Assembly: GCA_963824755.1 (NCBI GenBank)
Contig: CAWGQT010000022.1
Coordinates: 22,930-86,929, forward strand
Direction of reading: 5' to 3'
DNA: 64,000 nt
DNA from: an uncultured Solirubrobacterales bacterium
GTDB taxonomy: Bacteria > Actinomycetota > Thermoleophilia > Solirubrobacterales > Solirubrobacteraceae
Part shown: positions 21,936 through 63,469 of the stretch, in pieces
Layout: each line of letters opens with the position of its first letter
Numbering within the stretch: position 1 is the first letter of the stretch
Position numbers and translations under genes: made by a program
Notes under the pieces: model-generated
Database searches by the model: none
What the model saw: only the letters and a program-made list of their open reading frames with translations
Told to the model about the DNA's origin: nothing

Positions 21936-22307
21936 TCAGACCGGCGTCGTGACTCGGCCGCCGAGCCAGCGCTTGGCCCAGCGCTGCAGCTCGGAAAGCG
22001 CGGGTTCGAGCTCCCGCCCCATCTGGGAGAGCTCGTACTCGACCCGCAGCGGCGGGCCGGGCATCACGTTGCGCACGACGATCCCGCGGGCCTCCAGCTC
22101 CTTCATCCGCTCGGACAGGAGCCTGTCGGAGAGTTCTGGGACCGCCTGCGCGATCTCGGAGAAGCGGAGCGGACCGTCCATCAGCACGCGGAGGATCGCG
22201 CCCGTCCAGCGACGGCCGACGAGCTCAACCGCCTCGTGGTACAGGGGACAACAGCCGATGCCCCGTGAGGTGCGGCCCGCGTGGTCCGGATGCTCGCGCG
22301 CGCACAT
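21936..22307 (-). CDS. HxlR-family winged-helix transcriptional regulator
   Basis: CCP...AVELVGRRWTGAIL..L..GPLRFSE, LSERMKELE..GIV.R, RVEYELS.MG. Confidence 0.9.
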   Translation of the reverse strand: MCAREHPDHAGRTSRGIGCCPLYHEAVELVGRRWTGAILRVLMDGPLRFSEIAQAVPELSDRLLSERMKELEARGIVVRNVMPGPPLRVEYELSQMGRELEPALSELQRWAKRWLGGRVTTPV

Positions 22308-22317
22308 TGGCTGAAGA

Positions 22318-22869
22318 TCACGCGGCTTGCAGCCCGCGCGACTCCTCGCTGGATCCATCGACAGGTATCTCGCCCGCCACATTGATCATTGCGGTGAAGC
22401 CCTCGAGCGAAACCGCTGCGATCGCCTCGAGGATCTGCTCGTCGTCCCAGCCCGCCTCGCGCGCCTCCTCGTGGAGGTGCATGGGGGCACGACCGCGCGA
22501 CTCGAGCAGAGCCTGCAGGTACCGGAGCAGAGCTGCCTCGCTGGGGTCCTTGGAGGAGAACTGACGGGCGGCGGCCACCTCGTCGAGCGCGAGGCCTGCA
22601 TTGCGCGCGGCACGAGAATGCATCGCGATCCCGGACTCTGAGTTGTAGTACTCGGCGACGGCGAGAGCGATCCGCTCGAGCGTCGCCAGCGTCAGCTTGC
22701 CATGACGCAGCTCCGAGCGGAACCGCGCGTACGCGCGCAGCGCCGCCGGCGAGCCGGCAAGCACGCCGAGGAAGTTCGGCAGCTGACCGCCTGAAGCAAG
22801 AGCCCCGCGCAGCACCGGGACCGAGCCGTCCGGCGCAGTGAGATCGTCATGGATCTGGAATCTACTCAT
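22318..22869 (-). CDS. Carboxymuconolactone decarboxylase/AhpD-like protein
   Basis: MSRFQIHD..TAP, LPNFLGVLAGSPAAL..Y, ERIALAVA; directly upstream of the HxlR regulator. Confidence 0.75.
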   Translation of the reverse strand: MSRFQIHDDLTAPDGSVPVLRGALASGGQLPNFLGVLAGSPAALRAYARFRSELRHGKLTLATLERIALAVAEYYNSESGIAMHSRAARNAGLALDEVAAARQFSSKDPSEAALLRYLQALLESRGRAPMHLHEEAREAGWDDEQILEAIAAVSLEGFTAMINVAGEIPVDGSSEESRGLQAA

Positions 22870-22997
22870 GGAAGTTTTCATTGCGGTTACCCAGGGGTTC
22901 AAGAAGGGCAAGCGCCCATTTCGGGAAACGCTTGCCCCTTTACTTTTGAGACCTGCTTACGGTTGATAAGTCTAATTCGGTTGTGCCTTCAGCACAA

Positions 22998-23213
22998 GGG
23001 CGGGAGCGATCGTCGGATCCGGGCCGCGGCCGGCCTGAGGCGGTGTCCGATCTCACTCGGCGCAAGTTCACTTCCCCTTATACGGAATCGCCTAAACGGC
23101 GGATCAGCGCGCCCTCGGAGGAGCGTAAGCGGGCGTTGTTCGGGCGCGGTTATTGCGCGGCATTTCCGCTCCCAGGGCTGGTCGAGAAAGCGACGATCGC
23201 GGTTTTCTCGCCC
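22998..23213. ncRNA. Candidate structured ncRNA (6S-like rod)
   Basis: Nested long-range inverted repeats in an intergenic gap: gcgatcgtcg 23006-23015 with cgacgatcgc 23191-23200, gcgcaa/ttgcgc, cgcgccc/gggcgcg, and a less-paired central region. Confidence 0.35.
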
Positions 23214-23228: not shown

Positions 23229-23283
23229 GCGCCGGCTAGTGCAGGAGGACCGCTGCGCCGGCTAGTGCAGGAGGACCGCTGCG
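23229..23283 (+). repeat. Perfect 26-bp tandem duplication covering a stop codon
   Basis: gcgccggctagtgcaggaggaccgct at 23229-23254 and 23255-23280. Confidence 0.95.
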
Positions 23284-51181: not shown

Positions 51182-51651
51182 GTGACTAGTCTCAGGCGGT
51201 TGGTGCCGCGGTAGCGATCGCGGCTCCGCTGGTCGTGGTTGTCGCCGGCGGCTCGGCACTCGGCGCGCCAGGCAGTGTCGGCCGACCGGCACGCAACGGG
51301 CGCTGGACGGGCCGCACATCACAGGGCCTGGCAATCGCTCTGCGCGTCCGCGATCACCGCGTCGTCTCGATCAGCGGCACCGTTCACCTCACCGCGGTGG
51401 CCGGCTTCGTCGCTGGCGCTTGCGCGCAACCCCGCAAGTTCAGTGCCACGCTGAACAGCGCTGGATCGGGGCCCGGCACCAGCGACACCCACGGGTTCCG
51501 CCTGTGGGTCGTGAAAGATCCATTTGCCTGGGCCAAGGGCCGGATCACCGGCGCGCGCACGATCAGGGGCACGCTGACCTTCCAATCCGACGGTTCTCCC
51601 GATCCTTGCGAGGCTTCCGTGCACTTCACAGCCCACCCGGCTGTCAGCTGA
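51182..51651 (+). pseudogene. Secreted hypothetical protein with a probable 1-nt frameshift in the signal peptide
   Basis: RBS plus GTG 51182 gives MTSLRR then stops; adding one base near 51200 yields MTSLRRxGAAVAIAAPLVVVVAGG continuing into the 51235 ORF. Confidence 0.45.
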
Positions 51652-51702
51652 GTCAGCTGCTTGCGGGCGCGCGGCGTTAGCTGCAGGTTGATGGCGCCCG
51701 GG

Positions 51703-51729
51703 TGATCCGCTTCGCAGCCGGCCGCGTAT
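51703..51729 (+). promoter_or_regulatory. ECF-type promoter motif, copy 1
   Basis: TGATCC-gcttcgcagccggccg-CGTAT, ending 7-10 nt before the NiCoT start. Confidence 0.65.
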
Positions 51730-51738
51730 AGGCCGGTG

Positions 51739-52890
51739 ATGGAAGCTCTCTCGTTGCCGTCGTCGGGCGAGTCGCGGCTGGCGCGAATCAAGGCGTCGAT
51801 GTCGCCGCAGGAGTGGCGGCGGCTCGGCGGAATGGCCGCCGTGATCGCCGGCCTGCACATCCTGGGGTTCGGGCTCCTGATCCTGGTGGTAGCGCCGGAG
51901 CACCTCAAGCTCGGTGCGGCCGGCACGTTCGCGATTGGAACCGGAATTACGGCGTACACACTTGGTATGCGCCACGCGTTCGACGCCGACCACATCTCCG
52001 CGATCGACAACACCACGCGAAAGATGATGGGCGAGGGCAAGCGCCCTTTGAGCGTCGGCTTCTTCTTCTCGCTCGGGCACTCGACGATCGTGTTCGGCCT
52101 GACGTTCCTGCTCGCGATCGGCATCCGCGCGCTGAGCGGCCCCGTTCAGAACAGCCAGTCGACGTTGCACAAGGCGACGAACGTGATCGGGACCACCGTG
52201 TCGGGAGCGTTTCTGTACATCATCGCGATTCTCAACATCCTGATCCTGGTGAGCATCGTCCGGATCTTCTTCGGGATGCGGCGGGGGGCGTACGACGAGC
52301 ACGAGCTCGAGCAACAGCTCAACTCTCGCGGACTGATGAGCCGCTTCTTCGGCAAGCGGCTGAACGCGATCAAGGACCCGTGGCATATGTATCCCATCGG
52401 CATCCTGTTCGGCCTCGGATTCGACACCGCCACCGAGATCGGGCTGCTCGTCCTGGCCGCCGGCGCGGGCGCGGCGGGCCTGCCGTTCTACGCGATCCTC
52501 TGCCTGCCGGTCCTGTTCGCCGCCGGCATGTCATTGCTCGACACGATCGACGGGTCGTTTATGAACTTTGCGTACGGCTGGGCGTTCTCCAAGCCTGTTC
52601 GCAAGGTTTATTACAACATCACGATCACAGGGTTGTCGGTGGTAGTTGCCCTGTTTATCGGAACCTGCGAGCTGTTGGGGCTGCTGGTCCAAAAACTCGG
52701 ACTGCACGGCCCGGTCGCCGGCTGGTTCCAGCACTTCAACATCAACACCGCCGGATTCATCATCGTCGCGATGTTTGTTGGTACCTGGGCTCTCGCACTT
52801 GCGATCTGGCGCTTCGCCAAGATCGAAGAGAAATGGAGCGTCGGCATGCAGCTCGCGGCCACGCGCTCCGGCCGCAAGCAGGACACTTGA
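51739..52890 (+). CDS. HoxN/HupN/NixA (NiCoT) nickel/cobalt permease
   Basis: GMRHAFDADHISAID (HX4DH signature), FFSLGHSTIV, GLGFDTATEI, DTIDG..M..AY.WAF..P.RK.YYN.TIT. Confidence 0.95.
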   Translation: MEALSLPSSGESRLARIKASMSPQEWRRLGGMAAVIAGLHILGFGLLILVVAPEHLKLGAAGTFAIGTGITAYTLGMRHAFDADHISAIDNTTRKMMGEGKRPLSVGFFFSLGHSTIVFGLTFLLAIGIRALSGPVQNSQSTLHKATNVIGTTVSGAFLYIIAILNILILVSIVRIFFGMRRGAYDEHELEQQLNSRGLMSRFFGKRLNAIKDPWHMYPIGILFGLGFDTATEIGLLVLAAGAGAAGLPFYAILCLPVLFAAGMSLLDTIDGSFMNFAYGWAFSKPVRKVYYNITITGLSVVVALFIGTCELLGLLVQKLGLHGPVAGWFQHFNINTAGFIIVAMFVGTWALALAIWRFAKIEEKWSVGMQLAATRSGRKQDT

Positions 52891-52901
52891 GACACTTCCG
52901 T

Positions 52902-52928
52902 TGATCCAAGTCGGCGTGCAGCTCGTAT
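52902..52928 (+). promoter_or_regulatory. ECF-type promoter motif, copy 2
   Basis: TGATCC-aagtcggcgtgcagct-CGTAT upstream of tatA. Confidence 0.65.
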
Positions 52929-52965
52929 TGGTCATAACAAACCTCGAGCCTGATCGGAGTCACAC

Positions 52966-53205
52966 ATGCTTGGACTTGACAATCCAATTCACATTCTCTT
53001 CCTGCTGGTGATTCTGCTTCTGGTATTCGGCGCCAAGCGGTTGCCGGAGTTGGGACGTTCGCTCGGTTCGGGTCTGCGAGGGTTCAAGGACACGATCAAC
53101 GGCGATCCCGCCCGCCCGGAGCAGCTGACCGCAAACGCCGCGCTGGCGAGCGAGCCGACCTCCGAGTCCCGCGAGAACAGCACCACCGCGAGCCACGCCG
53201 CGTAG
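52966..53205 (+). CDS. tatA: Twin-arginine translocase subunit TatA
   Basis: TM helix, then FGAKRLPELGRSLG.GLRGFK amphipathic helix; RBS ggag. Confidence 0.93.
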   Translation: MLGLDNPIHILFLLVILLLVFGAKRLPELGRSLGSGLRGFKDTINGDPARPEQLTANAALASEPTSESRENSTTASHAA

Positions 53206-53236
53206 CTCCGGGCGTACTCACCGACCATCTGTCCCG

Positions 53237-54223
53237 ATGCGGGCTGCTGCCGTGCTCAGGCCGATCGGCCAGGCCGATCACCTGACCGTCGTCGACCACC
53301 TCGACGAGCTCCGCGCGCGGCTGATCGTCTCGCTACTCGCAGTCGCGGTCGCGTTCGGGCTGTGCTTCTGGCAGAACCACCGGCTGCTGCGTTTGATCAA
53401 CGCCCCGCTCGCGCACCAGACACAACAACAGGTGCGCGATGGGCAAGGCCCGCTGGGAGCCACTTACACTGTCAGCCGCAGCGCGAGGGACGTGGCCGTC
53501 CAGCTGCAGACGGTCGTCGGTCTGCTGGCTGCCGAGCGGGGCCAGCCGGCGGTGTCCAGGACGCTCCGTCAGGTCGACGCGAATCTTGGCCGCGACGTCG
53601 CCCGGCTCTCGGCTCCACCGCCCGGCGACCGTCCGGTGACGCTCGGGATCGGCGAACCGTTCACGACGACCGTCACCGTGTCACTGATCTTCGCGCTGAT
53701 TCTCGCGCTCCCCGTTCTGTTGCTTCAGGCTTACGCATTCTTGATGCCGGCGGCCGACCCGGCACTGCGCCGGCGGATGCGACCGGTACTGCTCGCGATC
53801 CCGATCCTGATGACCGCCGGCGTGACCTTCGGCTACTTCGTCGTCCTGCCCGCGGCTCTGCACTTCTTCCAGAACTTCAACAGCACGCAGTTCAACGTGC
53901 TCGTACAGGCGAGCCAGTACTACAAGTTCGCTGCGACCATCCTGCTCGCCATGGCCCTTCTGTTCCAGATTCCCGTCGTCATACTGGGGATCACGCGAGC
54001 GGGCTTGGTAACCCCTGCACAACTGCGCCGGAATCGGCGCTATGCGCTCGGGGCGTGCGCGTTGCTCGCCGCGGTTCTGCCTGGCGATGTGATCACGATG
54101 CTGCTCGAGATTGCGCCGCTGTACCTGCTGTTCGAAGGCAGTGTCTTGGTAGCGGCCATCGCCGCACGCCGCCGTGGATCTCGCGTCGGTGACACTTCGC
54201 CGACTTCCGTCCCGGCTGGGTGA
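53237..54223 (+). CDS. tatC: Twin-arginine translocase subunit TatC (atypical)
   Basis: HLDELRARL, EPF, P.LL.Q..AF..P, G..FGYFVVLP.AL.FF, FQIP, RRNRRYA, PGD...M. Confidence 0.92.
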   Translation: MRAAAVLRPIGQADHLTVVDHLDELRARLIVSLLAVAVAFGLCFWQNHRLLRLINAPLAHQTQQQVRDGQGPLGATYTVSRSARDVAVQLQTVVGLLAAERGQPAVSRTLRQVDANLGRDVARLSAPPPGDRPVTLGIGEPFTTTVTVSLIFALILALPVLLLQAYAFLMPAADPALRRRMRPVLLAIPILMTAGVTFGYFVVLPAALHFFQNFNSTQFNVLVQASQYYKFAATILLAMALLFQIPVVILGITRAGLVTPAQLRRNRRYALGACALLAAVLPGDVITMLLEIAPLYLLFEGSVLVAAIAARRRGSRVGDTSPTSVPAG

Positions 54224-54247
54224 TCCGTTTTCGCGCGGCATCCGTAT
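54221..54247 (+). promoter_or_regulatory. ECF-type promoter motif, copy 3
   Basis: TGATCC-gttttcgcgcggcatc-CGTAT starting at the tatC stop codon. Confidence 0.65.
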
Positions 54248-54300
54248 CGGATGTCAACAAGCCAACCACCACCCAGCTCAGGGGGTTGAAAGGAGCAGTT

Positions 54301-54630
54301 ATGACCGACGAGCGGAACAGCGGCGGCGGAGTGACGCGGCTGTCGTTCATCAAGGCGGGCGCAGGCGTAGCTGCGGGAGTCGCCGCGGCCAGCGTCCCTG
54401 CCGCAGCCGTGCTTTCCGGGGAGAAGAAGGGCGTTGTTACCTCGCCTTCGTCTTCCGCGCCGAAAGAACCGGTAATGGCGTACGTGCGCGATGCGCAGAA
54501 GGGCGAGGTGACGGTGTTGTCCGGCACCGCCGAGACGACGTATCGCGACCACGGGCTCGTCCGGCGTCTGATGGACGCCGCACCCGAGCCTTCAAGCCTG
54601 AACGGAGGAATCGATGTCATCGCACCGTGA
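54301..54630 (+). CDS. Small protein with Tat-like signal peptide (T-R-L-S-F-I-K)
   Basis: RBS gaaaggag; VTRLSFIK, then Ala-rich h-region and PAAA; overlaps the DUF4331 start by 17 bp. Confidence 0.75.
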   Translation: MTDERNSGGGVTRLSFIKAGAGVAAGVAAASVPAAAVLSGEKKGVVTSPSSSAPKEPVMAYVRDAQKGEVTVLSGTAETTYRDHGLVRRLMDAAPEPSSLNGGIDVIAP

Positions 54631-56014
54631 AGCACCGGAGATCAGCAAGGATCCGGTGGCGGACCACACGGACGTTTATGCGTTCGTCAGTCCCGACCGA
54701 CCGGACACGGTCACGCTGATCAGTAACTTCGTTCCGCTTCAGGATCCCCCTGGCGGACCGAACTTCTTCGAGTTCGGCGACGACGTCCTGTACTCGATCA
54801 ACATCGACAACGACGGCGACGGGGTCCCGGAGATCTCCTACGTCTTCAGGTTCCAGACCCTCCTGCGTGACACAGAGACGTTCCTGTACAACACGGGTCC
54901 GATCACCTCGCTCGGCAGCAAGAACTGGAACAAGCGTCAGTTCTATTCGGTCACGCGTGTAACGGGTGGCGACACGACAAAGTTCGGGAACGGCGGCCGC
55001 GGGCTGAGGGCAAAGGTGCTCGGCACCAATCTGCAGTGCCCGCCGTGCAACATTGGGCCACGCTCGACGCCGAACTACCCGGCACTCGGTGCTGCCGCCG
55101 TTCACACCCTATCGGGCGGCGTCAAGGTGTTCGCCGGTCAGCGGCTGGAGGGGTTCTACGTCGACCTCGGAGCGATCTTCGATCTCGGCGACCTGCGCCC
55201 GTTCCAGCACCTGCACCTGATCCCCAGCGCCGACGCGGTGGGGGTTGACGCGACCAAGACGCTCAATGTCCACACGATCGCGATTCAGGTACCGATCTCA
55301 GACCTGACCGCAAGCAGGTCGGTGCCAAAGAATCCGATGAGCAAGAACGCGGTGATCGGCGTGTGGTCCTCGTCCAGCCGCCGCAAGGTGCGGATGCTGA
55401 ACGGCAACGGCGTTCCGTCTGAGTCCGGGCCCTGGGTTCAGGTCTCACGACTCGGCAATCCGCTGTTCAACGAGGTGATCGTGCCGCTCGGCGACAAGGA
55501 TCGCTGGAACGCCCTGCCGCCGGCTGCTGACAAGCAGTTCGTCAAGTACGTGGAGAAGCCCGAGCTCGCCGGCCTGCTGCCGGTTCTGTACCCGGGCGTG
55601 TTCCCGAACTTGGCGAAGTTGAACAAGCCGCGCGCCGATCTGGTGGCGGTGCTGCTGACAGGCATTCCGTCCGGCATCGTTCCCGGGTTCCAGAACTACA
55701 CGGGCAAGACGCTGGCCGACCAGCTGCGGCTCAACCTCGCGATCCCGCCGACGAAGTCCAAGCCGAGCCTGTATGGCCTGCTCGGCGGCGACGCCGCCGG
55801 TTTCCCCAACGGGCGGCGGGTGTTCGACGACATCGTCAGCATCGAGCTGCGAGCGATTGCCGGCGTCACCTACGCACTGGTCGACAAGTCCTTCAAGCCC
55901 GATGGAGCGGCGTCGGAGCTGACGGAGGGACTGACACCCGGTGCGGGCCGCTACCAGAGCACGTTCCCGTATCTCGGCACGCCGAGGAGCGGGTTCGACA
56001 CGCCGTCCAGTTAG
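54614..56014 (+). CDS. DUF4331 domain protein (no signal peptide, N-terminus MSSHREAP)
   Basis: SSHREAP.I..DP.AD.TD.YAF, F.F.DDV.Y.I.IDN.GDG, FAGQR...F.VDLG.IFD, QVSRLGNPLFNEV, GFPNGRR..DD. Confidence 0.88.
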   Translation: MSSHREAPEISKDPVADHTDVYAFVSPDRPDTVTLISNFVPLQDPPGGPNFFEFGDDVLYSINIDNDGDGVPEISYVFRFQTLLRDTETFLYNTGPITSLGSKNWNKRQFYSVTRVTGGDTTKFGNGGRGLRAKVLGTNLQCPPCNIGPRSTPNYPALGAAAVHTLSGGVKVFAGQRLEGFYVDLGAIFDLGDLRPFQHLHLIPSADAVGVDATKTLNVHTIAIQVPISDLTASRSVPKNPMSKNAVIGVWSSSSRRKVRMLNGNGVPSESGPWVQVSRLGNPLFNEVIVPLGDKDRWNALPPAADKQFVKYVEKPELAGLLPVLYPGVFPNLAKLNKPRADLVAVLLTGIPSGIVPGFQNYTGKTLADQLRLNLAIPPTKSKPSLYGLLGGDAAGFPNGRRVFDDIVSIELRAIAGVTYALVDKSFKPDGAASELTEGLTPGAGRYQSTFPYLGTPRSGFDTPSS

Positions 56015-56029
56015 GTGCAGTTCCCGGGT

Positions 56030-56055
56030 GCTGGGCGCCACGGACGGCGCCCAGC
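56030..56055 (+). terminator. Strong hairpin between DUF4331 and His-rich gene (terminator, attenuator or mRNA stabiliser)
   Basis: gctgggcgcc-acggac-ggcgcccagc followed by tcttc. Confidence 0.55.
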
Positions 56056-56085
56056 TCTTCACACTCGATCCCGAAAGAGGACTTG

Positions 56086-56481
56086 ATGGGCCACCAGCAC
56101 TCCGACCACCTCCACGATCACGACCACCCGCACGCACACCCGGTCGAGAACTACTCGGCGCGAAAGCACCCGGAGTTCGTCGTGCTCGACATCGGCGAGG
56201 AGCTCGGCGCTCTGATCATCTACGCCGACCCTGAGATGCACGGCCGCGAGATCGAGATCAGCCCTGCCGGACGCGACGGTGACCGCAGCCACAAGGAGGT
56301 GCTCGAGCGAAGCGAAGGAGGCCACCCGGCGTTCACGGCGGTGTTCGACGCGCTACCTGCCGGCGCCTACACCCTATGGGTCGACGACAGACCCCGTGCC
56401 TGGAACGTGAACATCGACTGTGGCGCGATCGCCCAGCTCGACTGGAGGAGCGCACGGGCCACCTCCCCCTCCGCGGCCTGA
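56086..56481 (+). CDS. His-rich small protein, putative metal chaperone
   Basis: 8 His in the first 18 residues (MGHQHSDHLHDHDHPHAH), then VVLDIG.ELGALIIY..PE..GREIEISP and AVFDALPAG.YTLW. Confidence 0.75.
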   Translation: MGHQHSDHLHDHDHPHAHPVENYSARKHPEFVVLDIGEELGALIIYADPEMHGREIEISPAGRDGDRSHKEVLERSEGGHPAFTAVFDALPAGAYTLWVDDRPRAWNVNIDCGAIAQLDWRSARATSPSAA

Positions 56482-56525
56482 GCCGGTACGGCGCGTCGCC
56501 AGGTTCTAGCGGTCCACCACCGGCT

Positions 56526-57947
56526 TCAAAGACTCCCGACCGCGAATGTTCTCAGCGCGGCTCGCAGCTGGCTTGAGAAAGGGAGCGCCTGGTTGAATCC
56601 CGCCTCGTCACGGGTCAGGTCTTCCTTGAGCATGTGATCAATGCCGTCGAGGTGCACATAGTCGAGTTTCGCCTGCGCCTCAGTGAGACCCTGGGCGATG
56701 CGGTCTTCTTGCGCGCAGGTGAACCACATATCGGCGTTGCTGCAGGTCAAGAGCACCGGCGTCCGCGGGGCCAGCCTTGACGCGAGTTTGGCCGGATCGT
56801 AGTGGTCGATCTGCGAGAGCTCGAGCGGCGTGCCGTTGGCGTTGAAGGCATTGACCAGGGCGGCGGACACGCCCGCGGGCAGCATTCCCGTGCGGCGCAT
56901 GTACGCGACCACGCGTGCTCCGATCGGCGATCCAGCGAACAAGCTGAGAAAACGAGCAGGCACGGGCTCGAACAGGCCCACCGCATGGACCTTGGGCGCG
57001 CCGGGCAGCCCGGTCGCGAGCAGCAGCGCGTATATGCCGCCCTGGCTGTGACCGAACACGGCAAGGCGTGCACGGTTGGTCTGCCGCCGCGTGGCGAGAA
57101 AGCGCAGCGCGGCGACGGCTTCCTGCTCGTACGGCTTGATCCCGACGCGATCTGTATGCGCAGCGTATTTGCCCCAACCGGTCTGGCCGCTGCCGAGCTG
57201 GTCATAGCGCAGGCTTGCGACCCCATCGGCCGACAGCCAGTTGGCCACCGCCGCGAGCGTGTTTCGACCAAGCTGCTCGTCAGGACTTCCCGCCGGGCGC
57301 GGTCCTGTCCAGCAATCTCTCGTGCAGTTGTCGTTGCGGTCAGTCGCCCCGCCGCCGCCGAGCAGCACTGCAGCTGGAATCGATCCGGCGACCGCGATCC
57401 GCGGATGCGTGTACGTTCCGTAGATCGTCACCCCGCCGGCCTGGAACGTGACCGGCTGAGCCAGCCACCCGGGTGCAAGCCGAGGAATCATGCTCTGCGG
57501 TGACGCCGTCGCTGGGAGCGCCTGCATCGGCAGGAGGCCGGAGATCAGGCCGTCGGCGTTGACGGCCAGCGCGCCTCGGAAGCGCTGCGCGCCCCGGACC
57601 GAGATCACGAACGCGATCGACCTCGCCTGGCTGCTCGTAACCGAGACGAGGTGAACCTGCGCGACGCCGGCGAGCCCGCTATTGAGCTCGGCCACAGAAG
57701 TCCTGGCCAACAAGAGCGAGCTGACATGAGCTCGCAGTGCAGTGTCGGAGATGGGCAGATGGTTGAGCGCCTGGATCAGCCAGCGTGCCTGCGCCCCGGC
57801 CGGCGTACTGGGAAACGTTGGGCCGGCGGTCGTAGACGCCGACTGACTGCTCCCGCACCCGGCCAGAAGTGCGCTCGCCAGACCGACCGCCGCCCACCGC
57901 CGCCACGCCCACCTCCCCGCGCAAGATCCATCAACCATCTTGATCAC
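56526..57947 (-). CDS. Alpha/beta hydrolase lipoprotein
   Basis: Lipobox LAGC, DRNDN, SLRYD..G.G, GHSQG nucleophile elbow, late Asp and His (IDHMLK); start uncertain. Confidence 0.8.
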   Translation of the reverse strand: MIKMVDGSCAGRWAWRRWAAVGLASALLAGCGSSQSASTTAGPTFPSTPAGAQARWLIQALNHLPISDTALRAHVSSLLLARTSVAELNSGLAGVAQVHLVSVTSSQARSIAFVISVRGAQRFRGALAVNADGLISGLLPMQALPATASPQSMIPRLAPGWLAQPVTFQAGGVTIYGTYTHPRIAVAGSIPAAVLLGGGGATDRNDNCTRDCWTGPRPAGSPDEQLGRNTLAAVANWLSADGVASLRYDQLGSGQTGWGKYAAHTDRVGIKPYEQEAVAALRFLATRRQTNRARLAVFGHSQGGIYALLLATGLPGAPKVHAVGLFEPVPARFLSLFAGSPIGARVVAYMRRTGMLPAGVSAALVNAFNANGTPLELSQIDHYDPAKLASRLAPRTPVLLTCSNADMWFTCAQEDRIAQGLTEAQAKLDYVHLDGIDHMLKEDLTRDEAGFNQALPFSSQLRAALRTFAVGSL

Positions 57948-58049
57948 CTCGCTTCAAGCGGTCGTCGACCAAATGGCAAGCAGAAGCCCGCGTACCAGTC
58001 GTACTCTCGACTATGAGCGCTCGCGGACTCCACCACATCCGCCGTTTGT

Positions 58050-59054
58050 CGGGAAGTACTGGCGCAGCAGCCCGTTGGTGTTCTCATTGGTGCCGCGCTG
58101 CCACGGACTGTGTGGATCGCAGAAGTACACCGGCAGGCCGGTCTCGATCCGCAGCTGGGCGTGTTGGGCCATCTCGGTGCACTGGTCCCAGGTCAGCGAG
58201 CGGCGCAGCTGCTCAGGCAGCGTGACGATCGTCCTGGCGATCGCGTCGCGGACCGCCTCGGCGCCGTGCCCCGTTAGCGCGGGGCCGTCCTTTACTCGCG
58301 GCGCTTGGCCGGTCATCGGCGGGAGGTAGAGCAGCATCGTAAAGCGGGTTGAGCGCTCCACCAGCGTGCCGATCGCCGAGCTCCTCGCTCCGATGATGAG
58401 GTCGCCTTCCCAATGGCCGGGAACCGCCCTGTCCTGGGCTTCGGCGGGGCGTTGGCTGATCATCACCTCGTCGCTGACGAACCCGCGACCGCGACCGCTG
58501 GTGCGAGCTCTCGGGACCCGCAACGCCCGCCCGGTCCGCAGACAGGCCGTCAGCTCACGCCGCAACGCGCCACGCCCCTGAACGTACAGCGACTGGTAGA
58601 TCGCCTCGTGCGAGATACGCATTGACTCATCATCGGGGAACTCCAAGCGCAGGCGATTGGAAATCTGCTCAGGGCTCCACGCCCTCGCCCAGCGCCGATC
58701 CTTGCGCAGACCGTGACGCCGCCCGATCCACCTCACCCCAGGACCGTCGAGAGCCGTCCCATCGGGCCGCTTGACAGCTCCCGACAGACGGTCCTGCACA
58801 TACCGTCGCAGCCCGGCGTTCACGACCAGCTTCGCCGGCTTCGCACGCGAGCGCGCCGGTCCGCGTACCGCTGCGCCGAGCTCGCCCGATACTCAACGAC
58901 GCCGCCACACCTCACGACGTTCCGACGCAACTCACGAGAGATCGTCGACGGCGAACGCCCGAGCTGACGAGCGATCCCCCGCACCCCACACCCCCCAGCG
59001 CGCAGGATCGCGATCTCCTCCCGCTCAGCGAACGACAGATAACGCCCCGACAGA
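58050..59054 (-). mobile_element. IS30-family transposase remnant, truncated at both ends and frameshifted
   Basis: LSFAEREEIA, RSPSTISRELRRN, WSPEQIS.RL, ISHEAIY, PGHWEGDLI, LTWDQ, QRGTNENTNGLLRQYFP then breaks off; frameshift near 58847. Confidence 0.9.
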
Positions 59055-60060
59055 TTTGCGTAGTTGTCGGTTCAACGCCTCGATCGCGTTCGTCGTGTAA
59101 ATCACGCGACGGACCTCAGGCTCGAACTGAAGGAATGGTGTGACGTGCTCCCAGGCGTCCTGCCAGGCTTGAACGATCGGCGGGAACCGCTTGCCCCACT
59201 TCTCATCGAACGCCTCGAGCGCCGCCCAGGCAGCGTCCTGGTCGATCGCGGTGTAGATCGGCTTGAGGTCCTTGGCGACCTGGTCGAACTCGCGGCGCGG
59301 GACGTAGCGCAATGACCGTCGGATGAGATGCACGATGCATGTCTGCACGACGGTCTGCGGGAAGATCGCCTCGATCGCTTCGGGAAACCCGGTCAGCCCG
59401 TCGACGCAGCAGATCAGGATGTCTCTGACGCCGCGGTGTTTGAGTTCTGAGAGCACTTGCATCCAGAACTTCGCGCCCTCTGTCTCTTGGAACCACATGC
59501 CGAGCACGTCGCGCTCGCCGCTGACACGGACGCCGAGCGCGAGGTAGCACGCCTTGCGCTGCACGCTGCCGCCCTCCTTGACCTTGAGCACGAACGCGTC
59601 GAGGAACACGACCGGGTACACGTCGTCGAGCGGTCGCTGCTGCCACGCGCGGGCGTCTTCCATGACGGCGTCGGTACGCGGCTGATCAGATCCCGGCCGA
59701 CGTTGACGCCGTAGAGCTCGCGCAGGTAGCGCTCGATATCCCGCGTCGAGAGCCCACGGCTGTAGAGCGCGAGGATCTTCTCGTCGAACCCCTCAAAGCG
59801 CCGCTGACGCTTTCTGACCAGTTGCGGCTCAAAGCTGCCATCGCGATCGCGAGGCGCCTTGATCGACACCGGCCCGTGCTCGGTTATGAGCGTCTTCGGC
59901 TTGCCCTTCCCGTTGCGCGTGTTCCCCGTCCCGCCAGGCGGCTCCTGATGCGCCTCATAGCCGAGATGGTCGGTCAGCTCGACCTCCAGCGCCCGCTCGA
60001 CCAACCGCTTGGTCAACTCGCCGAACACGCCACCACGGCCGAAAATCTCCTCCTGGCCTC
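59055..60060 (-). mobile_element. IS256-family transposase remnant, truncated and frameshifted
   Basis: LTKRLVERALE.ELTDHLGY, PRDRDGSFEP, YSRGLSTRDI, VFLDA, DGLTGFPEAI, QTCIVHLIR, IYTTNAIE.LNRQLRK then breaks off; frameshift near 59676. Confidence 0.9.
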
Positions 60061-62245: not shown

Positions 62246-62578
62246 GTGCACTACGCTCCGCGGGTGACTCCCACCGCGACCCTTCTCATGTGGTTTCGCC
62301 TGCGCTCGCCGGAGCTGGCCGAGGACTTCGAGCGTCTGATGGCGGGAGACCGGGACATCGTCCGCGGGTCGCTTGACACGGTGACGGATTGGCGTCTTAC
62401 GCGACCGATGGACGTACCCGGTCAGGTGATCGATCAAGCCGACTACGTGCTGATCGCCGAGATCGTCCAAGTGCGGCGCTGGGAGCAACAGGCGAGCGAA
62501 CAGGTCCAACGCCTGGCGGACGATTTGGCGCATCTCGTCTCGAGCCGGGGGATGCTCGTCGTGCGTCCCGTCCTTTGA
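62246..62578 (+). CDS. Small dimeric alpha-beta barrel-like protein (RedY/HapK-like); start uncertain
   Basis: FRLR.PE..EDFER, DYVLIAEI pattern. Confidence 0.4.
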   Translation: MHYAPRVTPTATLLMWFRLRSPELAEDFERLMAGDRDIVRGSLDTVTDWRLTRPMDVPGQVIDQADYVLIAEIVQVRRWEQQASEQVQRLADDLAHLVSSRGMLVVRPVL

Positions 62579-62785
62579 TCCACTGTCCTAGCGGCACCGC
62601 AACGTAGGGCACTGGCCATCACATTTGGGATGCGGTCAGTCCAGGGCGGAGTCGATCGGCGGTCCGTTGTCGCCGAGGAAGGACAGCTCGCTCGAAGAGT
62701 GCTCTTGGTCACACGAAGCAAAGGATCGACCCGGCGCGGCGTCTGGCCCGGCAAAGGTCAATCACACGCGAAGGGAGTACTCCTA

Positions 62786-63469
62786 ATGGGTCGCTTCACG
62801 AGGTCGGGGTTGGTGCTGGGAGCTGCGGCGCTTCTGATTGCTGGCGGCGGTGCATATGACGCGTTCGCGTCTTCGGGCGGCGGAACCATCACGGTGTGCG
62901 TCAACCACGATGGCGGTACCTTGTACAAGGCGCGCAAGTGCGCCAACCGCGACAAGCAGCTCAGCTGGAACAAGCAGGGGTTGCCCGGCGCGACTGGGCC
63001 CCGGGGGCCAGTTGGTGCGACCGGGGCCAAGGGGCCGGTTGGCGCGACCGGGCCCCAAGGGCCAGTTGGTGCGACCGGGGCCAAGGGGCCAGTTGGCGAC
63101 ACCGGGCCGCAGGGCCCGATCGGGCCCCAAGGACTCAAGGGCGACACGGGTGACCGCGGTCCCAGCGACGCATTCACGAAACGAGGCGGCCCTCCTACGG
63201 ACCTGGCCGTGCCCGCCGGCAATTACTTCGTCATCGCCAAGGCCAGCGTCGCCAACGCGAACACGCTCACCCGATGCGATCTCACCGGCGGGACTGACGC
63301 GGACGCGACGTTCGGCAGTATCGAATCGACCGGGCACACCCAGGAAACGCTCGTGGCTACGATCGTCACGCATTTCGACGCCCCAGGGACTATCCACTGG
63401 TCCTGCAGCTCCGGTTTCAGCGCCAACCAGGCGGTCGTGAATGCTATTCAGGTGGGCGCCATCCACTGA
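62786..63469 (+). CDS. Secreted collagen-like protein
   Basis: RBS aagggag, signal peptide, ITVCV...GG.LY...C....LSWNKQG domain, 21 Gly-X-Y triplets (62978-63166), small C-terminal domain. Confidence 0.8.

Follow-up and report, generated by a model that had tools for sequence, protein, structure and literature searches.

A conserved ECF-sigma-type promoter motif probably defines a regulon of nickel import, Tat export and DUF4331 genes in a Solirubrobacterales bacterium

Extracytoplasmic function (ECF) sigma factors of group ECF11 read promoters with two well-defined boxes. In Shewanella oneidensis, the RpoE2 promoter is TGATCC...CGTATT, with starts mapped by primer extension, and cfa is included in the RpoE2 regulon table (PMC4336711). 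In Pseudomonas syringae, the PSPTO_1043 promoter was defined as TGATCC-N16-CGTA by chromatin immunoprecipitation sequencing (PMC5507510). ECF11 is a neighbour of ECF18 and ECF19, two groups marked by RskA-type anti-sigma factors (PMC7826278, PMC7509140). Mycobacterium tuberculosis SigK carries a conserved redox cysteine pair, C133/C183 (PMC7509140, PMC7826278), and together with RskA it controls a small regulon of exported proteins (PMC7509140, PMC4105308). Here we analyzed a 64,000-nt stretch of DNA, the window, from an uncultured Solirubrobacterales bacterium (C22:22930-86929 of assembly GCA_963824755.1; genome 6.44 Mb, 68% G+C). Copies of a TGATCC-N16-CGTAT motif in this window precede genes for a nickel-cobalt permease (NicO, NiCoT family), for a second set of twin-arginine translocation (Tat) proteins, and for a small protein encoded next to a DUF4331 protein. 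The motif is real, and we consider it probable (roughly 80%) that its copies are ECF-sigma promoters that define a regulon.

A pattern search of the window recovered three exact copies of TGATCC-N16-CGTAT on the forward strand, at the same coordinates as in an initial annotation of this DNA, and a fourth copy on the reverse strand that the annotation had overlooked (Table 1). Only 0.01 copies are expected in the window by chance, and none of 100 dinucleotide-preserving shuffles reached four. All copies are intergenic, and each is oriented toward the next gene. Comparing the sites bore out the earlier claim that their spacers are unrelated. The flanks are unrelated as well, which indicates that the copies are neither repeats nor parts of a duplicated segment. 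Based on the sequence logo of 63 related sites, we redefined the motif core as TGATCC-R-N15-CGTA. A purine directly follows TGATCC in 63 of 63 sites, a feature that the search pattern did not demand. The last T of CGTAT is kept in merely 33% of these sites, and CGTAT, which had been described as the fixed 3' box, is therefore reduced to CGTA. The layout corresponds to that of ECF (group 4) promoters, in which -35 and -10 boxes are separated by a constant ~16 nt, the -10 box contains CGT and the whole points toward the downstream gene.

The promoter upstream of the permease gene (P-nicO) lies 51 nt past the preceding open reading frame (ORF), with a GTG (51736) and an ATG (51739) located 7 and 10 nt past CGTA. 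P-tatA begins 11 nt past the nicO stop codon; its leader, 38 nt long, carries GGAG as a ribosome-binding site and leads to the tatA ATG. At P-small/DUF4331, the TGA of TGATCC is the tatC stop codon, and the ATG at 54301 follows after 53 nt of leader that contain AAGGAG. A consensus scan of 51200-56700 found neither a sigma70-like promoter nor a convincing terminator. The TGATCC boxes are thus the sole promoter-like elements of this region, and transcription initiated at them is expected to build up along the array, since its co-directional units have no terminators between them. In relatives, the nicO start lies 11 nt or 13 nt past CGTA. For 17 of 21 orthologues of the candidate sigma gene described below, the gap from CGTA to the first in-frame start codon is 10-15 nt. 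The nicO mRNA is therefore predicted from its spacing to be leaderless, as the initial annotation had suggested, and the gap of the sigma orthologues implies the same for their mRNAs. The small gene and tatA have leaders of 35-119 nt with Shine-Dalgarno sequences.

The window was noted earlier to lack a sigma gene, and the only sigma match of the contig indeed falls outside it. A profile search identified 47 sigma70-family genes in the genome. Just one of them, on contig C26 (the C26 sigma, Table 1), has TGATCC-N16-CGTA directly upstream. This search for an ECF sigma and anti-sigma pair preceded by the motif, which the annotation had proposed, thus found the C26 pair. The C26 sigma contains the sigma2 and sigma4 domains only, as is characteristic of ECF sigmas, and its best NCBIfam model is SigK (NF007228). 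The closest solved structures are M. tuberculosis SigK (4nqw, E 1.3e-24), followed by Rhodobacter sphaeroides RpoE (2q1z) and SigL. Directly downstream, in the arrangement typical of ECF18/19 (SigK-RskA), lies an RskA-type anti-sigma gene whose product scores 30.4 bits against PF10099 (cut-off 29.4) and 103 bits against NF052375 (cut-off 100). The anti-sigma start overlaps the sigma stop as ATGA, so the two genes are translationally coupled. The motif upstream of this operon is the arrangement that marks autoregulation. No further close homologue of the C26 sigma was found in the genome at E<=1e-30. A ChrR-type partner was also sought; cupin (Cupin_7) matches exist in the genome, and none adjoins a sigma gene.

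Across the genome, TGATCC-N16-CGTAT occurs six times, with four copies inside the window, and TGATCC-N16-CGTA occurs 15 times. The intergenic and correctly oriented copies comprise the four in the window, one at C38:324406 upstream of an O-methyltransferase gene, and the one at C26:119680 upstream of the sigma gene. We also observed an exact TGATCCA-N15-CGTA at C13:100672-100697 (+), located 8 nt ahead of what is probably the true ATG of a gene for an LPG_synthase_TM-family membrane protein, at which the G+C content of third codon positions jumps from 0.43 to 0.83. This copy is likely to be a seventh member. The regulon would then comprise 6-7 promoters genome-wide and differ between genomes. 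It would be larger than in the earlier description.

For comparison, we collected relatives of the DUF4331 protein from 80 species. Most are Solirubrobacterales; the rest are other Thermoleophilia and Actinomycetota and a few metagenome-assembled genomes of Dormibacterota and Ktedonobacteria. We searched 1.0 Mb of locus DNA with the pattern TGATC[CT]-N16-CG[TA]A. The related loci share a recurrent gene set (small protein - DUF4331 - His-rich (- TatA - TatC) - NicO), and in many of them genes for a SigK-like sigma and an RskA-like anti-sigma lie directly beside the DUF4331 cluster. The motif was found in promoter position upstream of the small gene (27), DUF4331 (5, where the small gene was undetected), sigK (20), tatA (4), nicO (1) and the His-rich gene (1), and 18 copies lie elsewhere. 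It precedes the small-protein/DUF4331 operon in 32 loci of other species and lies upstream of tatA in L005, L012, L083, L091, L141 and L148. In L005, two divergent copies serve tatAC and small/DUF4331. L012 has the tatA and small-gene promoters as in the window, and L016 has the motif at the nicO promoter. Orthologues of the C26 sigma carry the motif upstream in approximately 22 of 30 genomes of the same family. In 61 genomes of the family, the motif pattern occurs 97 times, compared with 7 for a reversed control. At orthologous positions, over 45 species retain the motif with spacers that differ. The same wiring of a nickel importer, a second Tat system and the DUF4331 set recurs in dozens of related soil actinobacteria. 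What these genomes show directly is the motif itself, where and in which direction it lies, how far it is conserved and how it is linked to the sigma. The proposal of the initial annotation that bipartite ECF promoters define a regulon was thus strengthened by the C26 sigma with the same motif, by conservation of the motif upstream of the sigma, small/DUF4331, tatA and nicO genes, and by the sigma pair beside the cluster in relatives.

The promoter box varied in one group of relatives. In Gaiellales-type loci (L017, L020, L024, L042-L046, L054, L060, L062, L064, L074 and L077), the TGATCC box is absent and a box GAACC-N16-CGAAT was observed. Copies of it stand back to back in the interval that separates sigK from the small/DUF4331 operon, and a single copy precedes nicO. 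The neighbouring sigma is only ~41% identical. This sigma and the variant box look as if they had co-evolved as a pair that controls the same regulon. Because these loci keep the linkage with a different box, the regulatory link seems to be older than the particular box. The initial annotation had likened the promoters of the window to the mycobacterial SigK type (CATCC..CG.A). Their closer match appears to be the ECF11 promoter, and the GAACC-N16-CGAAT box of the Gaiellales-type loci may be nearer to the SigK type.

Other relatives have no DUF4331 gene and have kept both members of the sigma/anti-sigma pair together with the TGATCC box (G049, of the same genus, G011 and G001). In these genomes, the box precedes tatAC, genes for Tat-signal lipoproteins with Ferritin_2 domains, and the pair encoding a carboxymuconolactone decarboxylase (CMD) family protein and an HxlR-type regulator. 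We observed the box upstream of tatAC and of tandem Ferritin_2 Tat lipoproteins in loci L142, L148 and L150 of G049 and in loci L141, L144 and L147 of G011. In G049, the box also precedes an FAD-oxidoreductase/DUF1365 pair. A search of the present genome for a homologue of the ferritin-like cargo found none. The conserved core appears to be the sigma/anti-sigma pair with the second TatAC, and the exported cargo appears to be lineage-specific.

We propose the following mechanism for the regulon as the probable one. TGATCC-R-N15-CGTA would represent the -35 and -10 elements recognised by a single ECF sigma factor, the C26 sigma, which would be restrained by its membrane-anchored zinc-finger/RskA-type anti-sigma. 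Upon a signal, the anti-sigma would release the sigma, which would then boost transcription of its own operon through the same box. At the same time, it would activate separate promoters for nicO (leaderless), tatA-tatC and the small/DUF4331/His-rich operon, and these promoters would add up along the co-directional cluster array. More peripheral targets would be the CMD-HxlR pair, the O-methyltransferase and probably the LPG_synthase_TM membrane protein. The transcription starts, the sigma that reads the boxes and the inducing signal are inferred here from comparative genomics.

Several observations weigh against this proposal. The genome-wide scan, which the initial annotation had suggested, yielded correctly oriented intergenic copies beyond the cluster; in raw counts with coding DNA included, exact matches with N16 are no commoner than those with other spacers. 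This is because coding DNA gives a background with three-base periodicity; what distinguishes the motif is where its copies lie, how they are oriented and that they cluster, and the total over the genome carries no such signal. When one mismatch was allowed, 16 sites were counted upstream of genes at N16 compared with 15-27 at control spacers. Since they are not enriched, a relaxed scan gives no usable extension of the regulon. The fourth motif copy, at CMD-HxlR, is kept in only 3 of 29 relatives, which makes the peripheral members uncertain; support is weaker for the CMD-HxlR, O-methyltransferase and LPG_synthase_TM members. The C26 sigma scores 148.6 bits against SigK NF007228, below the cut-off of 226, and both redox cysteines of SigK, C133 and C183, are Ala in an alignment to 4nqw. 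Finally, the C26 sigma is put forward as the reader of the boxes on genomic grounds.

We considered whether the boxes could instead be ECF promoters read by another of the 47 sigmas, in which case the motif upstream of the C26 sigma would reflect a sigma cascade and not autoregulation. The number of sigma70-family proteins leaves room for this explanation, as does the phylogenetic proximity of ECF11, ECF18 and ECF19, with ECF11 members reading the same box. We nevertheless regard it as unlikely. None of the other sigma genes is preceded by the motif, the C26 sigma has no second close homologue in the genome at E<=1e-30, and no sigma gene has a ChrR-type cupin anti-sigma beside it. Moreover, orthologues of the C26 sigma adjoin the DUF4331 cluster in many species, and where the sigma has diverged, as in the Gaiellales-type loci, the promoter box has changed too.

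It is even less probable, to a degree that makes it hard to sustain, that the motif is not a promoter and serves as the operator of a conventional DNA-binding regulator, such as a metal-responsive repressor of nickel genes. Metal-related genes are often under the control of metalloregulators, and the cluster encodes a NiCoT permease and a His-rich protein. However, the motif lacks symmetry and always points the same way as the gene that follows it, and it has the two-box layout and 16-nt spacer of an ECF promoter. Its fixed distance of 10-15 nt from start codons leaves no space for another promoter, there is no sigma70-type promoter in place for an operator to control, and the motif also precedes the sigma gene in about 20 genomes. 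Lastly, the notion that the matches are functionless, arising by chance or as remnants of duplicated intergenic segments, has only the unremarkable genome-wide N16 count in its favour and is effectively refuted by the comparative data, namely the preservation of the motif at orthologous positions with different spacers and the invariant purine at position 7, as well as by the chance expectation, the shuffles and the unrelated spacers and flanks in the window.

Table 1 Coordinates of the motif copies and genes discussed (window positions, or contig C26 where indicated).
Feature	Position	Strand	Basis or remark
P-nicO	51703..51729	+	TGATCC (-35)-N16-CGTA (-10)T
P-tatA	52902..52928	+	TGATCC-N16-CGTAT pattern match
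P-small/DUF4331	54221..54247	+	TGATCC-N16-CGTAT pattern match
Fourth motif copy	23080..23106	-	TGATCC at 23106, CGTAT end at 23080
Motif before C26 sigma, TGATCC-N16-CGTAC	C26:119655-119680	-	Pattern match
SigK-like ECF sigma, 202 aa	C26:119035-119643	-	PF04542 + PF08281/PF04545
RskA-type anti-sigma, zf-HC2 zinc finger (HLATCVVC) + RskA_C, membrane segment	C26:118349-119038	-	Profile matches
NiCoT/NicO nickel-cobalt permease	51736..52890	+	Pfam PF03824, 4.6e-98
TatA	52966..53205	+	Pfam PF02416
TatC, second copy of the genome	53237..54223	+	Pfam
Small Tat-signal protein, 109 aa, signal TRLSFIK	54301..54630	+	Translation
DUF4331 protein	54614..56014	+	Pfam
His-rich protein, 132 aa	56083..56481	+	Conserved; immediately follows DUF4331 in almost every related locus
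CMD (AhpD-like) family protein	22318..22884	-	Pfam
HxlR-type transcription regulator	21936..22382	-	Pfam; paired with CMD gene across the family

The fourth motif copy lies ~195 nt upstream of the CMD/AhpD-like gene. The leader behind it (22885-23079, reverse strand) contains a possible leaderless ORF of 46 codons, with GTG at 23071 and a TAA end. A strong hairpin (GGGGCAAGCGC...GCGCUUGCCCUUCUU) comes next, immediately ahead of the CMD gene. This leader could be an attenuator or a small RNA. It matched no family in Rfam, and its fold is not significant (z = -1.5). At 23229-23280 (reverse strand), a 26-nt unit (agcggtcctcctgcactagccggcgc) is exactly duplicated in tandem and includes the stop codon that ends the upstream gene.

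Two further observations concern the surroundings of the cluster. Just downstream, at 58011-59663 (reverse strand), lie an rve integrase-core fragment and a truncated Mutator-family transposase, which suggests a mobile-element scar at the cluster border. At 62576-62601 (forward strand), a TGATCC-N16-CGCA with one mismatch is located 29 nt before the gene for a collagen-repeat protein (62630-63469). It is probably a chance match, given that one-mismatch sites show no enrichment.

To further characterize the products of the cluster, we analyzed the small protein, the DUF4331 protein and their orthologues. The genome has a single DUF4331 gene, which overlaps the small gene by 17 nt. The other tatC gene, presumably the housekeeping copy, is located at C32:135116-135934. 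The DUF4331 protein has no signal peptide. An N-terminal MSSH was found in all 37 aligned orthologues, among which residues M1, S2, S3, H4, E6 and P8 are invariant. Its AlphaFold (AF2) model is confident, with a predicted local distance difference test score of 81.7 and a predicted template-modelling (TM) score of 0.88. A Foldseek search of this model against the PDB gave no match (best E 0.03, TM <= 0.14), the sequence had no match among solved structures, and the open-access literature searched contained no mention of DUF4331. The small protein, the His-rich protein, orf138 and orf173 had no match in NCBIfam and Pfam. The signal of the small protein follows T-R-L-x-F-[IV]-K in this genome and in a clade of relatives (L001, L002, L004-L006, L009, L012, L025, L027 and L036), and most other orthologues carry the canonical [ST]-R-R-x-F-[VLM]-K. 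As the single-Arg signal is conserved in the clade, it is not a sequencing error.

Tat 'hitchhiker' export carries cofactor-loaded enzymes, such as the small and large subunits of [NiFe]-hydrogenase, across the membrane. The small protein and DUF4331 have the hallmark of such a pair, a signal peptide on one partner only. Putatively, the cargo would be a nickel-dependent enzyme that leaves the cell as such a hitchhiker, and the module may respond to oxidative stress. A broader reading, which we offer as doubtful, is that of a stress-induced second Tat translocase with a lineage-swapped metalloprotein cargo, either nickel-supplied DUF4331 that piggy-backs on its partner, as in this genome and many others, or ferritin-like Tat lipoproteins, as in relatives without DUF4331, acting in envelope oxidative-stress defence, with DUF4331 as a new nickel-dependent enzyme. 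Within this stress-Tat reading, the role in defence of the cell envelope would follow from the ECF11 promoter type, which is that of photo-oxidative stress, and from part of the G049 regulon. If this holds, such an envelope defence would not have been recognised before.

Neither the promoter type nor the sigma/anti-sigma architecture is new, and the regulatory principle is ordinary. What is new is the content of the putative regulon, in which a Ni/Co importer, a second TatAC, a signal-bearing small protein, a signal-less DUF4331 and a His-rich protein would form one unit, previously undescribed and spanning many Thermoleophilia and other Actinomycetota. This would give DUF4331 its first regulatory context, an ECF11-like and possibly oxidative-stress sigma. 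The 60-odd sites across species, together with the Gaiellales variant box, provide a natural data set on the co-evolution of ECF sigma and promoter specificity. Expression of the sigma or deletion of the anti-sigma should turn on the whole module, which offers an experimental handle.

The module can be compared with three described systems. As in Tat hitchhikers, a twin-arginine-type signal is found on the small partner and none on the large one, and a nickel importer and a His-rich protein appear to be co-regulated here. There is no relation in sequence or fold to hydrogenases, and the pairing of the two proteins is putative here. The likeness to the ECF11 RpoE-ChrR systems (S. oneidensis RpoE2, P. 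syringae PSPTO_1043 and R. sphaeroides sigma-E) includes the promoter, which is identical, TGATCC-N16-CGTA(T/A). It extends to the small size of the regulon, to the motif upstream of the sigma's own operon, consistent with autoregulation, and to the G049 motif upstream of the FAD-oxidoreductase/DUF1365 pair. We take this pair to accompany the cfa operon in ECF11 singlet-oxygen regulons. In the present genome, however, the FAD-oxidoreductase/DUF1365/cfa operon lacks the motif. The region upstream of this FAD-oxidoreductase/DUF1365/cfa-like/SDR operon (C38:278330-278640) has no TGATCC box; it holds several repeats of TGTACA/CTGGACAG type that may serve as operator for a different regulator. Further differences from ECF11 are the anti-sigma, here a membrane protein of RskA type (zf-HC2 + RskA_C) in place of a soluble ChrR with a cupin domain, the host, a Gram-positive-type Thermoleophilia actinobacterium, and the regulon of nicO, tatAC and DUF4331. 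This regulon also sets the module apart from M. tuberculosis SigK-RskA (ECF18/19), as neither mpt70 nor mpt83 was seen in it, and so do the SigK score below the cut-off and the replaced cysteines. SigK gives the best structure and NCBIfam matches, and the two share the organisation of a sigma with an RskA-type anti-sigma and a small regulon. With an ECF11 promoter match on one side and an RskA-type partner on the other, the system, as judged from its genes, joins an ECF11-type promoter to an ECF18/19-type anti-sigma.

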